Shown here in pieces: positions 1 through 7,080 of a stretch of 7,080 nucleotides of DNA. The position numbers and the translations under genes are program-made. This DNA comes from a virus (taxonomy: Duplodnaviria > Heunggongvirae > Uroviricota > Caudoviricetes). Position 1 is the first letter of the stretch; the number at the start of each line of letters is the position of its first letter. The DNA is taken from IMG/VR virus record IMGVR_UViG_2698536511_000012. One strand, 5' to 3'. The notes below the pieces were generated by a model. The model was not told the origin of the DNA, did not search any database, and saw only the letters and a program-made list of their open reading frames with translations.

Positions 1-189
1 GAACAGGAGGGACAGCTGATAGAAACAGAAGCCACTGGAGCACCTCAAAAACACCATCATACACTAAATCAGTAAGTTGGCAGCATCACCGGGGGCGCAG
101 ACCCTGATTATGTTATCTGGGCGAAAGAAGTTCAGGGTATTAACCGTGCATGGACTTTCAGACACTGGAAAGGCACTGGAACGGTTGGC

Positions 190-588
190 GTGATGGTGGC
201 GACAAACGATCCGGAACGCCCGGCCCCGGATGAAAGCGTGATTAACGCAGTCAGGGACCACATCCTTCCTCTGGCACCTGTTGCCGGAAGCGGATTGTAT
301 GTATTCGGTGCCACAGAAAAAGTCATCCCGATGACGATTGCATTATCGAAAGACACACCGCAGATCAGGACTGCAATAAAAGCAGAGCTGAATGCACTGA
401 TGTTACGGGATGGTGTGCCAGAGGGGCGTATGTATCTGTCCAGAATCAGTGAGGCCATCAGTTTGTCTGCTGGTGAAGTGGCCCACCGGTTAATCGTCCC
501 TTCATCGGATATTGACCTGGGGGAGACCGAGCTTCCGGTGCTCGGCGAGATCACCTGGCAGGCTTATGACCCGGCAAGGAGTAAATAA
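190..588 (+). CDS. Baseplate assembly protein J-like (gp47/P2 gpJ family), C-terminal portion only; probably a 5'-truncated remnant
   Basis: The translation resembles the C-terminal third of P2 gpJ/Mu gp47-type baseplate proteins. Similarity in the same frame extends upstream to about position 76 with no start codon, and an in-frame TAA sits at 73-75. Sequence upstream of 73 in all three frames does not resemble the J family. The stop overlaps the next gene's ATG (TAATG at 586-590), which is typical operon coupling. Confidence 0.6.
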   Translation: MMVATNDPERPAPDESVINAVRDHILPLAPVAGSGLYVFGATEKVIPMTIALSKDTPQIRTAIKAELNALMLRDGVPEGRMYLSRISEAISLSAGEVAHRLIVPSSDIDLGETELPVLGEITWQAYDPARSK

Positions 589-1178
589 TGGATTCGTTAC
601 AGGATGATTATACAAAGCTGCTGTACGGACTGATGCCGCCGGGGCCTGCATGGTCAGATACCGACGGTGTACTTGACGGTCTGGCACCATCGCTTGTGCG
701 TGTTCACCAGCGGGCTGATGAACTGGTGATTGAAATCGATCCCGGTCAGTCCACAGAGCTGATTGAACGTTATGAAGAATTGTATGGTTTACCTGATTCC
801 TGTTCCCCTGTCGGAACCCAGACATTACGCCAGCGTCAGCAACGTCTTGAAGCAAAAGCCAATGTGGCTGGTGGCATAAATGAGCAGTTCTTCCTGGATC
901 AGCTTGAGGCGCTGGGATATACCGGCGTAACGATCGAACAGTTCCAGCACTTGGATGCAAGCCCCGATCCGGAATGGGGAGATCGCTGGCGTTATTTCTG
1001 GCGTGTGACGTTGCCGATGGATGCCGGTGCTCAGTGGCAGACATGCACGGACGCCTGCAACACACCGATCCGGACGTGGGGGGATACGGTTGCGGAGTGC
1101 GTGATTAATAAATTATGTCCGTCACACACCGTCGTTTTATTTTCCTATCCAGATGAGGATGAAGATGCACAGGATTGA
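588..1178 (+). CDS. Phage tail protein I-like (P2 gpI / YmfQ-like, DUF2313-type) baseplate protein
   Basis: 196-aa ORF with an AGGAG Shine-Dalgarno at 576-580 upstream of ATG 588. It sits between the J-like and tail-fiber genes as in the P2/Mu baseplate order J-I-fiber. The protein resembles YmfQ/gpI-family proteins as I recall them. Confidence 0.75.
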   Translation: MDSLQDDYTKLLYGLMPPGPAWSDTDGVLDGLAPSLVRVHQRADELVIEIDPGQSTELIERYEELYGLPDSCSPVGTQTLRQRQQRLEAKANVAGGINEQFFLDQLEALGYTGVTIEQFQHLDASPDPEWGDRWRYFWRVTLPMDAGAQWQTCTDACNTPIRTWGDTVAECVINKLCPSHTVVLFSYPDEDEDAQD

Positions 1179-2205
1179 TACGCTGACTGCGGTAAAAGAT
1201 AAGTTTGGTCCGGGTAAGAACGGATTTACTGACGGAAATCTTCGCACAGGACGTCTTGCTACCTGGCTGAACAGTGCCATGTGGAATGCCATTCAGGAGG
1301 AAATCTGTGGTGTCATTGAGAAGGCCGGGATAGAACTGAATAAAGAAGAACACGACCAGCTATATAAGGCTATATTATTGCTGGTGGGCGGTGCAATTAA
1401 CGAAGAGGCATTGCTGATAAAAAATAACCTTTCGGATGTGGAAGACAGGGATGAGGCTGTTGAAAACCTCGGATTAAAACCCACGGTGGATAAGGCAAAA
1501 AATGCCGTTCAGCGTGATGGCGACACCATGACCGGAGAGCTGAAAATCCGTGGTGTTAATGCGCTGAGGATTTTCAACGAAGCTTTTGGCCTGATTTTTC
1601 GTCGTTCGGAAGAGTGCCTGCACCTTATTCCCACCAGTGAAGGTCAGGGGGAAAATGGCGATATTGGTCCCCTGCGCCCGTTCACCATTAATCTGCGGAC
1701 GGGTGAAATATCCATGTCGCATAAAGTGTCTGTTGGCGGTGGTTCGCAGGTCAATGGTGCGCTGGGTATCGGCGTTCAGAACGCCCTGGGGGGGAATTCA
1801 ATTGTTCTTGGTGATAATGACACCGGATTCAAACAGAATGGTGATGGCCTGCTGGATGTTTATGCCAATAGCGTGCATGTGTTGCGTTTTCAGAGTGGCA
1901 GTATCCAGAGTAATAAAGCTGTAAACGTTACAGGACGGGTAACACCGTCAGACTACGGAAACTTTGATGCCCGTTACCAGCAGCGAAATGGTGGCGTGCA
2001 GGATGTGCGGTATGGTTATGAAATGTATTACCCCCCCGGCAGTAACACCGTTTCGTGGACATTTCGCTCACCTTCGGGACACGGGCTGTCAGGGATATCG
2101 ATATCGGATACCGGCCGTAACTCAGCGGATAACGTCAACGGCGTGTATTACCGACCGCTGCAAAAACTGATTAATGGCACCTGGTATAACGTAGCGAGTA
2201 TTTAA
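1165..2205 (+). CDS. Phage tail fiber protein (Mu S / P2 gpH-type C-terminal receptor-binding domain); alternative starts at ATG 1153 or 1159
   Basis: The C-terminal ~160 aa (IVLGDNDTGFKQNGDG...DVYAN...NFDARY...INGTWYNVASI) closely match the conserved C-terminus of P2 gpH and related Mu/P1 S fibers as I recall it. The N-terminal region has the W-N-x-IQEE...AGI pattern of fiber baseplate-attachment domains. A GAGGA motif lies 5 nt before ATG 1165. Confidence 0.8.
   Translation: MHRIDTLTAVKDKFGPGKNGFTDGNLRTGRLATWLNSAMWNAIQEEICGVIEKAGIELNKEEHDQLYKAILLLVGGAINEEALLIKNNLSDVEDRDEAVENLGLKPTVDKAKNAVQRDGDTMTGELKIRGVNALRIFNEAFGLIFRRSEECLHLIPTSEGQGENGDIGPLRPFTINLRTGEISMSHKVSVGGGSQVNGALGIGVQNALGGNSIVLGDNDTGFKQNGDGLLDVYANSVHVLRFQSGSIQSNKAVNVTGRVTPSDYGNFDARYQQRNGGVQDVRYGYEMYYPPGSNTVSWTFRSPSGHGLSGISISDTGRNSADNVNGVYYRPLQKLINGTWYNVASI
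1457..1482 (+). other. Relic DNA-invertase (hix/gix/cix-type) crossover-like motif at the constant/variable junction of the tail fiber gene
   Basis: CTGTTGAAAACC-TC-GGATTAAAACCC: the left half is close to the Hin hixL half-site TTCTTGAAAACC, and the AAAACCTCGG core is identical to the reverse complement of the Mu gixL core (site sequences recalled from memory). The right half is degenerate. It encodes the ENLGLK junction motif at 1462-1479. Confidence 0.35.
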
Positions 2206-2207
2206 CA

Positions 2208-2753
2208 ATGTTGCATTTAAAAAATATTACGGCAGGTAATCCGAAAACCGCGGAATAATATCAGCTGACAAAACAGTATGATGTCACCTGGCTTTTTTCG
2301 GAAGACGGCAAAAACTGGTATGAAGAACAGAAGAACTTTGCCAGTGACACCATAAAAATGGTTTACACCGGAGACGGGCGCGTGGTGTGGGTCGGTAAGG
2401 ATGTGACAGGCATTGAACCCCGTAACGCCAGTGTTATTGAAGTTCCTGATATTACCGCCAACCGCCGCATTACCGCGCCGGGTTACTGGTTTTACCGCAA
2501 TGATGAATTTGTCTTTGACTACAGACTCAAAGCGGAAGATGAGCGTGATGCCCTTCTGGCTCAGGTCAGTGCCCGGACAGGGGAATGGGAAGAAGACCTG
2601 CTGCTGGGGCTAATCAGCGACGAAGACCGGGAAAAACTGAAAGCGTACCGTATTTACGCGAAATCGCTGCAGGCGATGGATTTCAGCACCATCACTGATA
2701 AATCCTCATATAACGCCATTGAATGGTCCGTCTCTCCGGAAGGTTCTTCCTGA
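2208..2753 (+). pseudogene. Tail fiber assembly protein (P2 gpG / Tfa family) interrupted by an in-frame TAA at 2256-2258; longest intact ORF is 2358-2753
   Basis: ATG 2208 opens with MLHLKNITAGNPKTAE, matching the conserved Tfa/gpG N-terminus (MxHLKNI..GNPKTKEQYQLTK), then hits TAA where the family has a glutamine codon (CAA). The same frame continues as YQLTKQYDVTWLFSEDGKNWYEE... into the 2358-2753 ORF, which carries the SVIEVPDITANRR motif of gpG. Confidence 0.7.
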
Positions 2754-2776
2754 TTTAATTTATCGCGAGAAAAACT

Positions 2777-4045
2777 ATGTCTGTAGTGATATCAGGTGCG
2801 CTGACTGATGGCGCAGGCATCCCCATGTCCGGATGCCAGATTATTCTGAAATCCCGTGTAAACACCTCAGAAGTGGTGATGCGTACCAGGGCTGATGTAG
2901 TGACCGGAAATAACGGTGAATATTCGTTTGAGGCACAGGTCGGAAAATATTGCGTGTATCTGAAACGGGACTGGCGCGACGAGTACTGTGTTGGCGACAT
3001 TGCTGTATACGACGACTCAAAGCCCGGCACGCTGAATGACTTTCTGATTGCTCCTGATGAGGGCGACCTGAAACCGGATGTCGTCAAACGCTTTGAGGAA
3101 ATGGTGGCGCAGGCGCAGCAGAGCGCCGGGGCCGCAGCCGGAAACGCACAGCAGACGGCGCAGGATGTGGCGGCAGCCGCAGGTTATGCCCGCGCAGCAG
3201 AGCAGGCCAAAAATGACATTGATGCTGCGCTGACCGGCACTCTGAAAACGGCTAACCATCTGTCTGAAATCGCAGCAGCAGGCGAAAAGGCACAACAGAA
3301 GTCCCGGGATAATCTGGGGCTGAAAAGTGCGGCCACGATGGAAGCACAGAGCGACATTTACGACCGGACAAAAGGCCGTCTGGCGATACCCGGCGCATTC
3401 GGCTTTGGGTGTGCTTTTCTGCCTGAAGATGTTATCCGTTTTGACACTAAGAGTGATTTCCTGGCCTGGGTAAGGAATGCGCTGCCAGGTGAATATTCCG
3501 TTGCTGGCCCCTACGACATCATCATACCCGACACACGGTTTGAAGGGGTGCTCAGCATCCGGTGGACTGATGCACGCCCTGAGACAACAGAACCGAGGTA
3601 CAGAGCCAAATCCCTTACTTTTTACGGCATTAACGGCCCCATTTATCACACCCGCTACTGCTACTGGCCCATATCCAGACTGACTGGCTGGGTGAAAATA
3701 AATATAACCACAGAAGATATTATTTACAGAATCGTGGCGAGCTCTGTCTGCAACAGATGGGGAGACCCTGACATTGGCGGGCTGATTATTGCTGCGTACC
3801 AGGGAGAAGCTGACGGTGATAAAGTCATCAGACTTGTCAGGGGGCAGTCATACAGAGGCTCACGACTGGGACCGGTGGGGATTTCAGTGCCCAGTACTCC
3901 CACCGGAACGTATATAGCATCCCCACAATTTTTCATTACGGGATGTTCAGAGCATTCATTACCGGGGTCATATAGCGCCCTGTCCGGGGTGCCGGATGCT
4001 CATGTCTCTGGCGCAATGCCCGGGCTTTTTATTCGCACATCGTGA
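2777..4045 (+). CDS. Tail fiber protein with a lambda Stf-like N-terminal domain, Ala/Gln-rich shaft, and a ~230-aa C-terminal domain of unrecognised family
   Basis: The N-terminus (MSVVISGALTDGAGIPMSGCQIILK...YDDSKPGTLNDFL...RFEEMV) parallels the lambda side tail fiber N-terminal domain (MAVKISGVLKDGTGKPVQNCTIQLK...YEDSQPGTLNDFL...). It is followed by an A/Q-rich segment and a DNLGLK junction at 3308-3325. The C-terminal half matches nothing I recognise. Confidence 0.75.
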   Translation: MSVVISGALTDGAGIPMSGCQIILKSRVNTSEVVMRTRADVVTGNNGEYSFEAQVGKYCVYLKRDWRDEYCVGDIAVYDDSKPGTLNDFLIAPDEGDLKPDVVKRFEEMVAQAQQSAGAAAGNAQQTAQDVAAAAGYARAAEQAKNDIDAALTGTLKTANHLSEIAAAGEKAQQKSRDNLGLKSAATMEAQSDIYDRTKGRLAIPGAFGFGCAFLPEDVIRFDTKSDFLAWVRNALPGEYSVAGPYDIIIPDTRFEGVLSIRWTDARPETTEPRYRAKSLTFYGINGPIYHTRYCYWPISRLTGWVKINITTEDIIYRIVASSVCNRWGDPDIGGLIIAAYQGEADGDKVIRLVRGQSYRGSRLGPVGISVPSTPTGTYIASPQFFITGCSEHSLPGSYSALSGVPDAHVSGAMPGLFIRTS

Positions 4046-4055
4046 GGAATGCACC

Positions 4056-4757
4056 GTGGAAATTAAAAAAATCATTAATCCCCGTTATACCGAAAGTGGC
4101 GCAGTAGACTGTGACGTTTTTTTTGACGACAGGGACCAGGCAGTCCCCTACACAGCCACCGCTGATGATGTCGCACCGACGGGTCAGCGAATCTGGCAGG
4201 AACTGCAAAGTGGCAAATGGGGTGAGATAGCCCCATTCACTGTGACACCAGAAATGCTGGAAGCGGCCAGAGAGGCCAGACGTCAGGAAATTGAAGCATG
4301 GCGCACAGAACAGGAGGCGAAGCCGTTCACGTTTGAATGGAANNNNNNNNNNNNNNNNNNNNNNNNNNNNNNNNNNNNNNNNNNNNNNNNNNNNNNNNNN
4401 NNNNNNNNNNNNNNNNNNNNNNNNNNNNNNNNNNNNNNNNNNNNNNNNNNNNNNNNNNNNNNNNNNNNNNNNNNNNNNNNNNNNNNNNNNNNNNNNNNNN
4501 NNNNNNACTCACTGGGCCGCCTGTCCCCGGTAGTCATGCTGGCAAAATCTGTCACAGCACAAACGCATATGGCGTGGGGTGATGCCGATAATCAGCAGGT
4601 GAAACTGTCGATGCCGGAACTGGAAGAACTGGCGGCAGCAATGGTGCAGGCGCAGGTCGATCGCAACGATGAGATTTATCGCCGTCAGCGTGAAATGAAA
4701 GAGGAGCTGAGTGGTCTGGAGGATTTGGGAACAATTAGAGCGTTTGATGTTACGTAA
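4056..4757 (+). CDS. Putative tail fiber assembly/chaperone-like protein (possibly DUF4376-type); internal region 4343-4506 is N-masked
   Basis: The ORF follows the fiber gene immediately. The likely start is GTG 4056, preceded by GAGG at 4044-4047, rather than the out-of-context ATG 3996 that overlaps the fiber gene by 50 nt. The reading frame is continuous across the N-run in absolute coordinates. The family assignment is from memory and uncertain. Confidence 0.55.
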   Translation: MEIKKIINPRYTESGAVDCDVFFDDRDQAVPYTATADDVAPTGQRIWQELQSGKWGEIAPFTVTPEMLEAAREARRQEIEAWRTEQEAKPFTFEWXXXXXXXXXXXXXXXXXXXXXXXXXXXXXXXXXXXXXXXXXXXXXXXXXXXXXXXXSLGRLSPVVMLAKSVTAQTHMAWGDADNQQVKLSMPELEELAAAMVQAQVDRNDEIYRRQREMKEELSGLEDLGTIRAFDVT

Positions 4758-4803
4758 TTGGTAAGCTGCATCGTGTTAAATTGTTACCCTTATTTACAAC
4801 TAG

Positions 4804-4837
4804 AAAAGCCTCTGACTTCATAATCAGAGGCTTTTTT
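4804..4837 (+). terminator. Rho-independent terminator (possibly bidirectional) closing the tail-fiber operon
   Basis: GC-rich stem GCCTCTGA (4808-4815) pairs with TCAGAGGC (4824-4831) around an 8-nt loop, followed by TTTTTT (4832-4837). An A-run precedes the stem, so the reverse strand also shows a hairpin plus a short T-run. Confidence 0.55.
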
Positions 4838-4838
4838 G

Positions 4839-4854
4839 AAATGCACGTGCATTT
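4839..4854. repeat. 16-bp perfect palindrome AAATGCACGTGCATTT
   Basis: Exact reverse-complement symmetry read directly from the sequence, immediately 3' of the terminator T-run in the gap between the prophage genes and ssrA. Function unknown. Confidence 0.4.
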
Positions 4855-4955
4855 TGCGTGTATATTTTTGTCTTTTTCTGGTCCGCTTACTGTCTGGTCA
4901 GTGTCCGTAAGTGACTGTTTTTATAGTCTCTGTCCGGTTGCAGTCCTGTCAAAAG

Positions 4956-5361
4956 TGGTGGAGCTGGCGGGAGTTGAACCCGCGTCCGAAATTCCTACAT
5001 CCTCGGTNNNNNNNNNNNNNNNNNNNNNNNNNNNNNNNNNNNNNNNNNNNNNNNNNNNNNNNNNNNNNNNNNNNNNNNNNNNNNNNNNNNNNNNNNNNNN
5101 NNNNNNNNNNNNNNNNNNNNNNNNNNNNNNNNNNNNNNNNNNNNNNNNNNNNNNNNNNNNNNNNNNNNNNNNNNNNNNNNNNNNNNNNNNNNNNNNNNNN
5201 NNNNNNNNNNNNNNNNNNGAGAGGGCTCTAAGCAGGTTATTAAGCTGCTAAAGCGTAGTTTTCGTCGTTTGCGACTATTTTTTGCGGCTTTTTACGAGGC
5301 CAACCGCCCCTCGGCATGCACCTTGGGTTTCGCAAATCCCGTCGAATCCAGAATCAGCCCC
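4956..5361 (-). ncRNA. ssrA: tmRNA (SsrA / 10Sa RNA); middle portion N-masked (5008-5218)
   Basis: The reverse complement of 5219-5361 reads GGGGCTGATTCTGGATTCGACGGG...GCTTAGAGCCCTCTC, identical to the first 143 nt of E. coli tmRNA. The reverse complement of 4956-5007 reads ACCGAGGATGTAGGAATTTCGGACGCGGGTTCAACTCCCGCCAGCTCCACCA, the tmRNA 3' end with CCA. It lies downstream of smpB on the same strand, as in E. coli. Confidence 0.9.
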
Positions 5362-5369
5362 AATGTGTA

Positions 5370-5410
5370 AAGGTAAGTATACCAGATTTATGAGCGCCAT
5401 GACCAGCCTC
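5370..5410 (-). promoter_or_regulatory. Putative ssrA promoter (-10 TATACT on the minus strand at 5376-5381)
   Basis: A TATACT hexamer lies about 7-15 nt upstream of the mature tmRNA 5' end, consistent with a short precursor leader. The -35 region is only a weak match (TGGTCA). Sequence-only inference. Confidence 0.3.
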
Positions 5411-5575: not shown

Positions 5576-6058
5576 TTAACGGTGGGCGTTTTTCATGATA
5601 CGTGCTTTATCCACCTGCCATTCGCGTTCTTTGATATCTGAACGTTTATCGTGCTGTTTTTTACCTTTGGCGACGCCGATTTTCACTTTGCACCAGGCAT
5701 TTTTCCAGTACAGGGAGAGCGCCACTACGGTATAGCCTTCTCGATTGACGCGACCGTACAATGAGTCCAGTTCGCGCTGGTTGAGAAGTAACTTGCGGGT
5801 ACGGGTAGGATCGCACACCACATGCGTGGAGGCCACGGCCATTGGCGTGATGTTAGCGCCAAACAGAAATGCCTCTCCGTCACGCAGAAGGACGTAGCTG
5901 TCGCTGATATTGGCTTTTCCTGCGCGCAGGGATTTAACTTCCCAGCCTTGCAGGGCAAGTCCCGCTTCGAACTCTTCTTCGATAAAGTATTCGTGACGGG
6001 CGCGCTTGTTAAGCGCGATGGTCGCTGAACCAGGTTTATGTGCTTTTTTCTTCGTCAT
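5576..6058 (-). CDS. smpB: SsrA-binding protein SmpB
   Basis: The 160-aa translation ([81 protein letters not shown]...) matches E. coli SmpB. It sits directly upstream of ssrA on the same strand. Confidence 0.95.
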
Positions 6059-6189
6059 AAGCGTCGTGAATCATCGGTAATCTGAAATCGAAAACACCCC
6101 ATATCAATCCTGCGGGGGACAAGGCTCTATCTTAGCATGAACCCGATGTTACCCAGCGCCGGGATAGCGTTTTTTTTACAGCAGGATAA

Positions 6190-6666
6190 ATGATATTATT
6201 TGTTGGATTTTTGTTGATGGAAATAGTTATGCCTCAGATTAGCCGGACCGCACTGGTACCCTACAGCGCGGAGCAAATGTATCAGTTAGTGAATGACGTT
6301 CAGTCTTATCCTCAGTTTTTGCCGGGTTGTACCGGAAGTCGGATTCTGGAGTCCACTCCTGGGCAGATGACTGCGGCGGTAGATGTCTCTAAGGCTGGGA
6401 TCAGCAAAACGTTTACTACCCGCAACCAGTTGACCAGTAACCAAAGTATTCTTATGAATCTGGTGGATGGGCCGTTCAAGAAATTGATTGGTGGATGGAA
6501 GTTTACGCCGCTGAGCCAGGAGGCGTGTCGTATCGAGTTTCATCTCGACTTTGAGTTTACCAATAAGTTGATTGAACTCGCCTTTGGTCGCGTGTTTAAA
6601 GAGCTGGCGTCTAATATGGTCCAGGCTTTTACGGTTCGTGCGAAAGAGGTTTACAGTGCTAGGTAA
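6190..6666 (+). CDS. ratA: Ribosome association toxin RatA (YfjG; SRPBCC/polyketide cyclase-like fold); alternative start at ATG 6229 ([10 protein letters not shown]...)
   Basis: The translation matches E. coli RatA/YfjG as I recall it. It is divergent from smpB, as in the E. coli chromosome. Which of the two in-frame starts is used cannot be decided from sequence. Confidence 0.85.
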
Positions 6667-6946
6667 AATTGCCGTTGAGGTGGCTTATGCGCTACCTGAG
6701 AAGCAGTACCTGCAGCGCGTGACGCTGCAGGAGGGCGCGACGGTTGAAGAAGCTATTCGCGCCAGTGGCTTGCTGGAATTGCGTACCGATATCGATTTAA
6801 CTAAAAACAAAGTCGGCATTTACAGCCGTCCGGCAAAACTAAGCGATAGTGTGCATGATGGCGATCGGGTGGAGATTTATCGCCCTCTCATTGCCGATCC
6901 GAAAGAGCTTCGCAGGCAACGAGCAGAAAAATCAGCGAATAAATAA
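6656..6946 (+). CDS. ratB: RatB (YfjF, UPF0125 family) protein
   Basis: A GTG start at 6656 gives a 96-aa product ([38 protein letters not shown]...[11 protein letters not shown]) matching E. coli YfjF. It overlaps the ratA stop by 11 nt. The longer six-frame ORF from 6572 is an in-frame upstream extension inside ratA. Confidence 0.8.
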
Positions 6947-7023
6947 CAGACAGAAAAAAGGTGCTCATTGAGCTAATGCCGATCAGTTAAGGATCAGTTG
7001 ACCGATCCAGTGGCTGTGTAAGA

Positions 7024-7057
7024 ATCCGGAAACGCTCACTTGTTTCCGGATTTTTTT
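7024..7057 (+). terminator. Rho-independent terminator downstream of ratB
   Basis: Stem ATCCGGAAAC (7024-7033) pairs with GTTTCCGGAT (7042-7051) around a loop, followed by TTTTTTT (7051-7057). Confidence 0.55.
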
Positions 7058-7080
7058 ATGCACATTGGACAGGCTCTTGA

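Follow-up and report, generated by a model that had tools for sequence, protein, structure and literature searches.

The 7,080-nucleotide stretch of DNA analyzed here (the window) very probably shows the attR junction and the tail-fiber end of an old phiP27-like prophage that entered ssrA in an ancestor of Shigella sonnei and was inactivated stepwise, as judged from sequence comparison. The window is 100% identical at all unmasked bases to S. sonnei 2015C-3566 (CP022457.1; strain name from PMC6456863), and the source records of its proteins name S. sonnei. An earlier interpretation made from the letters alone (the sequence-only reading) described a tail-fiber operon adjoining the 3' end of ssrA with no integrase in view. 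This description holds: the operon ends at 4757, the 3' end of ssrA lies at 4956, and Pfam detected no integrase domain in any of the ten substantial ORFs of the window.

The tail-fiber operon and its lesions

Window bases 1–90 are the end of an insertion sequence and not phage DNA. They match the terminal 90 bases (IRL end, minus strand) of a 768-bp IS1, whose complete copy occupies 6547–7314 of L009, a locus 100% identical to the window, with the InsA and InsB Pfam domains on the minus strand. The complete element lies within a baseplate J gene, bordered by the 9-bp target duplication GGGGGCGCA, one copy of which forms bases 91–99. The window retains the C-terminal 165 codons of this J/gp47 gene (91–588, plus strand; Pfam Baseplate_J, 1e-24; PHROG baseplate wedge/tail protein), and its N-terminal fragment (224 aa) is found on the far side of IS1 in S. 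sonnei genomes. The J gene that the sequence-only reading had described as truncated is thus split by IS1, and it is not lambda J, an identity we rejected since the sole Pfam hit is Baseplate_J (PF04865) and the PHROG is a baseplate wedge. The exact IS1/J junction gave no match in the genome contig collection searched.

The remaining genes of the operon are all on the plus strand. An intact gene for a Mu gp48/YmfQ-type baseplate wedge protein (588–1178; 196 aa; Pfam Phage_Mu_Gp48, 2e-25; PHROG 203) is followed by a tail fiber gene (1165–2205; full-length match to PHROG 6859, 5e-209), which S. sonnei genomes call as 346 aa and which has an alternative ATG at 1153 giving 350 aa. The tail fiber assembly gene tfa (2208–2753; Pfam Caudo_TAP, 7e-25) is a pseudogene: in the alignment, codon 17 (2256–2258) is TAA here versus CAA in the EIEC, C311 and phiP27 orthologs, and the Gln17-to-stop change is present in 21 of the 21 S. 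sonnei-type loci checked. The second tail fiber gene (2777–4045; 422 aa) encodes a prophage tail fiber N-terminal domain (Pfam phage_tail_N, 2e-63; PHROG 2636), and the exact protein, assigned to S. sonnei in its source records, occurs on 674 contigs. The last gene (4056–4757) is a tail-fiber-associated DUF4376 gene (Pfam DUF4376; PHROG 1141, match from residue 19). Its ORF is open from 3996, and an overlap with the 422-aa fiber gene was considered and rejected, the likelier start being the GTG at 4056, which is preceded by GAGGAA and lies 11 bases past the fiber stop codon. An invertible fiber segment was likewise rejected: all fiber genes are on one strand, the window has no invertase ORF of a fiber-switching cassette (Mu G, P1 C or e14 P type), and no significant inverted repeats were found in the window.

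The window contains two runs of N, at 4343–4506 and 5008–5218, behind which an otherwise 100% identical locus has 26 and 168 real bases, respectively. In L009, where the 26 bases are visible, the DUF4376 gene is an uninterrupted 207-codon ORF. The "interrupted" state of this last gene and a tmRNA of 406 nt are masking artefacts. Regarding the interrupted tfa reported from the sequence alone, one interruption is real, namely the CAA-to-TAA change, and the other is the mask.

The closest known system is phiP27 (NC_003356 / AJ298298), an inducible Stx2e-converting phage with an stx2e gene and an 11-bp att for integration into yecE (Recktenwald and Schmidt 2002). Its right end reads L52(J)-L53-L54-L55(tfa)-L56-L57-L58-attR, with int at attL, and the window shares this order: J/gp47, gp48, fiber, tfa, fiber, an L57-like gene and attR. 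Window 91–3144 is 91.6% identical to phiP27 at the nucleotide level, and the S. sonnei fragments described below, which are probably parts of one element, share with it a P27-type small terminase, head genes of the HK97 type and a Mu-type tail. In contrast to phiP27, the element studied here occupies ssrA, carries no stx, has distal fiber and DUF4376 genes of another type, and is broken. For window 3145–4342, no megablast match to phiP27 was obtained past 3144. The closest relatives of this portion are ipaH-linked prophage remnants of EIEC and Shigella rather than phiP27, so that the fiber end may have been exchanged by recombination.

An alternative is that the fiber genes were kept because they are useful, as a reservoir with which incoming phiP27-like phages recombine or as part of a tailocin-like structure, which could add to an account based on decay. 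In many genomes, full-length ORFs persist for the two fiber genes, gp48, DUF4376 and all of the tail module from the sheath gene to gp46. One draft genome has a copy of the fiber block beside ipaH at 100% identity, and EIEC copies match the block at 98%. However, the baseplate requires J, which is split here, and one of the chaperone genes is inactive. Since S. sonnei is clonal, intact ORFs need not reflect selection, and we regard such usefulness as rather unlikely. The sequence-only reading had proposed that finding the block in an inducible prophage, or at loci other than ssrA, would argue against a decayed ssrA remnant. A homologous block does occur in the inducible phiP27 at yecE and, at further loci, beside ipaH; these occurrences indicate a module shared between phages and do not prove that the present copy is intact.

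The attachment junction at ssrA

The tmRNA gene is a textbook integration site. In the window, ssrA is intact (4956–5361, minus strand; ARAGORN and Rfam RF00023, 140 bits; tag ANDENYALAA), and its strand places the 3' end at 4956. The mask at 5008–5218 replaces 168 real bases, so the true gene measures 363 nt, as it does in the identical locus that has no mask. At its 3' end, the gene does not differ from canonical E. coli ssrA.

The att core, AAAAG plus the final 27 bases of ssrA (4951–4982), was recognized by its recurrence at other junctions. The same 32 bases are repeated at attL of the C311 prophage and again at the internal junction in S. sonnei genomes with a second prophage in tandem; identity is lost at window position 4983. 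The core includes the 25-bp attP/attB reported for Citrobacter rodentium PhiNP, an active myovirus that integrates at the 25-bp ssrA 3' end and rebuilds the gene (PMC6456863); the PhiNP core TGGTGGAGCTGGCGGGAGTTGAACC is identical to window 4956–4980, and the likeness concerns the integration site.

Between the end of the operon and the 3' end of ssrA are 198 bases, of which 4758–4950 (plus strand) constitute the phage arm of attR by homology to the prophage arm of E. coli C311. The C311 prophage (NZ_CP062204.1, about 1,220.8–1,264.4 kb) is a full 43-kb relative at the same ssrA site and in the same orientation, ordered int-xis-cI-replication-Q-lysis-terminase-head-tail-fibers-ssrA, with a copy of the ssrA 3' end beside int. 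It shares the late gene order, a homologous attR arm and the core, and is 91.5% identical over window 91–3144. Unlike the element described here, it retains int, xis, the repressor, the replication genes, the capsid and attL, and its distal fiber has 759 aa versus 422 aa. The ssrA-adjoining stretch 4569–5007, with the phage arm at 4569–4955, is 87.5% identical to its equivalent in C311, and the phage arm beside ssrA is 93.3% identical to E. coli cq9. A stretch covering at least 80% of 4740–5007 is present beside ssrA in 461 of 5426 E. coli genomes. None of the complete RefSeq E. coli genomes has the block at more than 97.8% identity, and none has the same junction, a result that directed attention to Shigella.

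The window therefore presents an intact tmRNA gene whose last bases border foreign DNA, together with an arm homologous to those of complete prophages at ssrA. Because a full relative exists in the same orientation with int at the far end, tail fibers beside ssrA are the normal attR arrangement, the first of two origins that the sequence-only reading had offered. In both phiP27 and the C311 ssrA prophage, int lies about 40 kb away at attL, and this lambdoid layout explains the missing integrase in the window.

The second proposed origin was a deletion that removed an int-proximal part once abutting ssrA and thereby brought the tail fibers to it. The element did undergo large IS-associated deletions, and in CP4-57 of E. 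coli K-12 it is intA that adjoins ssrA. However, the 198-base arm has its homolog in the attR arm of a full-length prophage located at ssrA, the att core comes immediately after it, and the polarity is the same in phiP27 and in the ssrA prophage of O157:H7. We consider a deletion origin of the juxtaposition very unlikely. In the O157:H7 case (F8952 locus), the prophage likewise has its tail-fiber side at ssrA, with an arm 84% identical to window 4781–5007, but it is a different phage, with type III effector cargo (espW, espM2, nleG-like) between the fibers and ssrA.

Within the arm, a hairpin at 4801–4838 has a 15-bp stem between a run of A and a run of T, with minimum free energies of −20.6 and −20.8 kcal/mol on the plus and minus strands, respectively, and a z score of about −5. 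We infer that it is likely a bidirectional terminator, acting on the phage late operon and on read-through from ssrA.

The remainder of the element in S. sonnei

Beyond ssrA, the window continues into host DNA (5576–6946) carrying smpB (5576–6058, minus strand), ratA (6229–6666, plus) and rnfH/yfjF (6656–6946, plus), identified by the Pfam domains SmpB, Polyketide_cyc and Ub-RnfH. This flank is 99.7% identical to E. coli C311, and its order after ssrA is that of E. coli. The window then ends in the first 107 bases of a 1426-bp IS4 (6974–7080, plus strand; 100% match to an annotated IS4 end), which sits in the terminator hairpin after yfjF at the target GCTCATTGAGC (6963–6973). Gene calls in S. 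sonnei loci include the IS4 transposase, and this copy is one of three whose recombination split the prophage.

The sequence-only reading had advised inspecting the region upstream for head and tail genes, an integrase and a second att copy. About 24 kb of phage DNA outside the window survives in S. sonnei genomes, including genes for the sheath, tube, tape measure, baseplate and terminase, most of the portal gene, the lysis genes, Q and a helicase. The element is defective, as that reading had suggested, but it does not retain mainly host-range genes. No second copy of the ssrA core was found in the window or in the S. sonnei fragments read, and no tyrosine integrase or attL was found within about 10 kb to the left of TerL. 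The far-end core copy was presumably deleted.

The surviving DNA lies in two fragments. In the tail fragment, the left flank reads clpB-yfiH-rluD-bamD, then IS4, then a portal stub; further on, the protease gene ends at codon 120 at an IS600 that is joined directly upstream of the sheath gene, and about 3.5 kb are absent at this junction relative to C311. The other fragment reads ypjA', an IS3-family element, helicase through TerS-TerL-portal (1–379), IS4 and a host segment; homology to the C311 early region starts only at the helicase, with the IS3-family element and ypjA to its left. TerS (P27), TerL, portal codons 1–379 and protease codons 1–120 are present in S. sonnei, on a separated fragment, and the capsid gene is deleted. 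The two fragments probably belong together, being tied by the 12-bp duplication GTCCCGGTGGTG, which is shared out between the two portal junctions; the 14-bp CAGCCCTTGAGCTG is divided likewise, with one part at the bamD junction and the other at the raiA junction. For the left-hand fragment, the tracing used Ss046, CP104423.1 and other complete S. sonnei chromosomes rather than CP022457.1.

These junctions bear on the proposal that the window shows an intact, inducible prophage from its attR side, the truncations being effects of the window edge and the masks. The gene order does match the right end of inducible phiP27, and masking does account for one "interruption" and for the excess length of the tmRNA. 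However, IS1 lies inside J with its target duplication, the tfa nonsense codon is fixed, the capsid region is lost at IS600, IS4 divides the portal gene and there is no early region; the junction sequences contradict an intact prophage, which we consider extremely unlikely. The locus is full of repeats (IS1, IS4, IS600) and one draft contig (L024) joins the block to a different flank, but an assembly chimera has a practically negligible probability, given that over 20 complete, independent chromosomes, Ss046 and ATCC 29930 among them, have the same junctions, and that the split target duplications are consistent with a coherent recombination history.

Probable stepwise inactivation and chromosomal rearrangement

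The anatomy, homologies and IS junctions can be read directly, and from them we infer the following history, in which the steps of decay may have come in another order. A phiP27-like temperate myovirus, combining a lambdoid gene order with an HK97-type head and a Mu-type baseplate, very probably integrated into the ssrA 3' end of an S. sonnei ancestor, its tyrosine integrase using a core of about 27–32 bases. Since the phage also carried this core, integration restored an intact ssrA and brought the tail-fiber end of the late operon next to it, with the integrase about 40 kb distant at attL. IS1 entered the baseplate gene J, and a tail-fiber assembly gene acquired a nonsense mutation. IS600 took out the protease C-terminus and the capsid, connector and tail-terminator genes, and the IS3-family element deleted the early region together with int and attL, so that ypjA now borders the helicase gene region. 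IS4 entered the portal gene and recombined with two other IS4 copies, inverting segments; a 17.5-kb host block now separates the tail half from the terminase-portal half. With J::IS1, tfa Q17*, the capsid deletion, the portal::IS4 split and the loss of the early region and attL, the element is predicted to be able neither to excise nor to build particles.

The terminase-portal half lies about 25 kb off, beyond a block of host genes. The 17.5-kb bamE-to-raiA block, whose genes include recN, grpE, ffh, rpsP, rimM, trmD and rplS, lies between the two prophage halves and occurs in two orientations among S. sonnei strains, so the inversion may still switch. We tentatively propose, with a confidence slightly below even, that the IS4 copies in the portal, at yfjF/bamE and at raiA/bamD make the dead prophage a hinge of nested chromosomal inversions, that switching could alter gene expression in the block, and that the fiber block by ipaH may mark recombination between phiP27-like remnants, moving effector-linked DNA.

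The ssrA site itself is still usable, since some S. sonnei strains hold a second, newer prophage there in tandem, between this remnant and ssrA. A 61.7-kb viral contig was considered as a long element upstream and rejected: it begins at the protease gene and must run rightwards, and it probably extends into the tandem second prophage.

IS-driven decay and rearrangement are hallmarks of Shigella, and the element is an ordinary, already catalogued kind of genomic fossil. The findings have little significance beyond annotation, in which this prophage should be entered as two fragments of one element, linked by target duplications of IS4 that are split between them. Published lists already contain phiP27-like regions of S. 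sonnei: for strain 75/02, a 57-kb phiP27-like region was labeled "intact" by PHAST, a gene-content score only (PMC5447701). That report gives coordinates and PHAST labels, with no IS junctions or split structure; its regions share the species and the closest reference phage, phiP27, with the present locus. Separately, the terminase and portal genes have near-identical counterparts in an unrelated S. sonnei prophage of siphovirus type.

The attR end at ssrA

The window carries the attR side of a decayed prophage at ssrA, as the sequence-only reading had proposed in general terms, and a native phage arm, an att core and a series of lesions bear this out. ssrA, called by ARAGORN and Rfam at 4956-5361 on the minus strand (tag ANDENYALAA), has its 3' end pointing left, at 4956, and smpB, ratA and rnfH/yfjF lie to its right, arranged as in E. 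coli. The phage genes, all on the plus strand, are the C-terminal 165 codons of baseplate J/gp47 (91-588), Mu gp48/YmfQ (588-1178), a 346-aa tail fibre (1165-2205), a Caudo_TAP assembly gene, the first tfa (2208-2753), a 422-aa fibre with a prophage tail fibre N-terminal domain (2777-4045) and a DUF4376 gene ending at 4757. No integrase domain was found among the substantial ORFs of the window. The earlier coordinates were correct.

The phage arm appears in relatives. Window 4569-5007 aligns at 87.5% identity with the stretch adjoining ssrA in E. coli C311 (locus L002, NZ_CP062204.1), indicating that the arm is native to the ssrA site. At least 80% of 4740-5007 adjoins ssrA in 461 of 5426 E. 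coli genomes, and in the remainder similarity to the window begins only at 4951-4956. The core, 4951-4982, consists of AAAAG and the final 27 bases of ssrA; it is repeated beside the C311 integrase (attL), identity with that copy ending at 4983, and contains the 25-bp att of PhiNP, an ssrA-integrating myovirus (PMC6456863). Within the arm, a strong hairpin (4801-4838) flanked by an A run and a T run looks like a bidirectional terminator, a role suggested by its form.

The closest phage is the Stx2e phage phiP27, with 91.6% identity across window 91-3144. Its deposited prophage map runs attL-int-xis through Q-stx-lysis-terminase-head-sheath-tube-tape measure-baseplate to L52(J)-L53-L54(fibre)-L55(tfa)-L56(fibre)-L57-L58-attR. 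At ssrA, C311 holds a relative of 43 kb, oriented as in the window, with integrase and excisionase at the opposite end, and the O157:H7 ssrA prophage shares this polarity. Fibres that adjoin the att site, and an integrase out of view, are the standard polarity of phiP27-type phages. Of the two explanations previously offered for this layout, the normal attR arrangement holds and deletion does not.

All unmasked bases match Shigella sonnei locus L009, CP022457.1, the strain named 2015C-3566 in PMC6456863; CP026802.1 (S. sonnei ATCC 29930) also matches. The window proteins are assigned to S. sonnei in their source records and occur on hundreds of contigs, and the block was not found at >97.8% identity in any complete RefSeq E. 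coli genome. The two N runs (4343-4506 and 5008-5218) do not preserve length: by comparison with L009, 164 N stand for 26 real bases and 211 N for 168. The tmRNA call is therefore inflated to 406 nt (the true ssrA has 363 nt), and spurious ORFs arise, such as 4781-5251. Without the mask, the DUF4376 gene of L009 is an intact 207-codon ORF, probably starting at GTG 4056. ssrA itself is untouched. A sigma-70-like promoter match just 5' of its start (5376-5405, minus strand; TGGTCA, 18 bases, TG-TATACT) did not exceed the shuffled-control expectation.

Lesions in the tail module

The decay is made up of one nonsense mutation, two deletions that adjoin IS elements, and insertions of IS1, IS4 and IS600. 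Window 1-90 is one end of a complete IS1 of 768 bp, flanked in genomes identical to the window by the 9-bp duplication GGGGGCGCA; directly past it lie a 224-aa N-terminal J fragment, gp46, gp45, gp44 and the remaining tail module. J, which had been described as truncated, is indeed disrupted, but it is split by IS1, its N-terminal part lying right across the element. Codon 17 of the first tfa (2256-2258) is TAA in all S. sonnei-type loci compared and CAA in the EIEC, C311 and phiP27 orthologues. This stop is real, whereas another interruption that the sequence-only reading may have had in mind is a mask artefact. Further frameshifts or deletions affect the first fibre, 422-aa fibre, DUF4376 or tape measure gene in individual S. 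sonnei genomes (L007, L008, L014, L017, L018, L020 and L021), part of which may be sequencing errors.

To the left, the genes for DNA circularisation, tape measure, assembly chaperone, tube and sheath remain full-length in S. sonnei chromosomes. In most of these the tape measure gene is followed by another IS1, flanked by a 9-bp duplication of its own; CP022672.1 has an IS5-like element at this position. IS600 lies directly upstream of the sheath gene, and beyond it the prohead protease gene survives only as its initial 120 codons, about 3.5 kb (capsid, connector and tail-terminator genes) being absent relative to C311. The exact 120-aa product occurs on 622 contigs and has been annotated in S. 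sonnei genomes, Ss046 among them. In 8 complete chromosomes the final ~90 bases of the portal gene stand ahead of the protease stub; before them comes IS4, and before that bamD, rluD, yfiH and clpB in inverted order.

Probable IS4 inversions and the separated half

A further IS4 occupies the terminator hairpin after yfjF (window 6963-7080; L009:14017-15442; target GCTCATTGAGC). bamE follows it in CP060117.1, ATCC 29930 and CP029794.1, which represents the ancestral order, and in the first two of these strains the element is flanked by a simple 11-bp duplication, GCTCATTGAGC. In a second group, which includes CP022457.1 and CP104423.1, raiA follows and the 17.5-kb bamE-raiA block is inverted. 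The bamD-side flank ends in CAGCCCTTGAGCTG, and the same 14 bases open the raiA-side flank of the IS4 that starts at window 6974 in L009-type genomes. From these junctions a third was predicted, in which the 5' portal part would meet the distal end of the bamE-raiA block, and it was confirmed at the locus of the S. sonnei large terminase.

The separated fragment reads, on its left, ypjA', an IS3-family element and helicase-RusA-Q-ORF6N-holin-lysozyme-Rz, and on its right HNH-TerS(P27)-TerL-YmfR-portal(1-379), then IS4, followed by bamE in one strain set and raiA in the other. The portal fragment ends in GTCCCGGTGGTG before its IS4 and the portal stub starts with GTCCCGGTGGTG after its own, so the two represent the 12-bp duplication from one IS4 insertion. 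In CP104423.1 the two portal pieces lie ~43 kb apart in opposite orientations. Split duplications and the two observed configurations suggest two successive IS4-IS4 inversions. Before this, to judge from its relatives, a tyrosine integrase would have inserted the phage at the ssrA core.

About 24 kb of phage DNA survives, as two pieces. Homology to the C311 early region ends left of the helicase, where the IS3-family element links it to ypjA, a chromosomal gene that lies beyond the ssrA island region, and no ssrA core copy was found in the S. sonnei fragments examined. The integrase, attL and immunity region thus appear to have been deleted. Upstream, where the sequence-only reading had advised looking for head and tail genes, an integrase and a second att copy, tail genes are present and the capsid gene is gone, with neither integrase nor second att copy in these fragments. 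The remnant would be unable to excise or assemble.

In S. sonnei contig CXFI01000117.1 (L460), a different prophage, with a lambda-type siphovirus tail and a protease gene broken by IS4, shares HNH, TerS, TerL and portal genes with the split element at 99.9% identity over 4.3 kb; owing to this duplication, draft contigs end within the portal gene.

The observation is real. Integration at ssrA and IS-driven decay are well known in Shigella, and phiP27-like regions have been listed before in PHAST analyses of S. sonnei (PMC5447701).

Other loci and reuse of ssrA

phiP27 integrates at yecE, whereas the window element lies at ssrA; the fibre block is a module common to related phages with different integration sites. 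EIEC-like strains carry it at 94-98% identity beside ipaHe near zinT. The nearest E. coli copies, in FDAARGOS_944 (98%) and RMDEC465 (94%), adjoin ipaHe and a methyltransferase gene there and have their own IS4 and IS66 insertions. Draft GCA_950287405.1 (L024) matches window 92-4342 at 100% identity on a 40.6-kb contig, tfa stop included, and diverges only in the last 250 bases, inside the DUF4376 gene. In place of ssrA, a gene for a 587-aa IpaH effector follows, with ybhB and bioA-bioB-bioF; this link may reflect recombination between remnants or an assembly join. Occurrence away from ssrA had been put forward as evidence against an ssrA-site remnant. Such copies do exist, in phiP27 and beside ipaH genes, and the conclusion on the window copy is unchanged.

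In C311, another island is stacked on the displaced ssrA core past attL (L002:14378-15607), with a second integrase gene and a response-regulator/ATPase gene pair. Certain S. sonnei genomes (L006, L010 and L016; CP032523.1, CP044191.1) carry a second lambdoid prophage just right of the att core, between remnant and ssrA, whose early genes include those for a 391-aa integrase and an S24 repressor. The 32 bases of the att core (4951-4982) are repeated at the inner junction, where the newcomer has left a degenerate copy of the ssrA core at the end of the remnant. The ssrA site is still in use.
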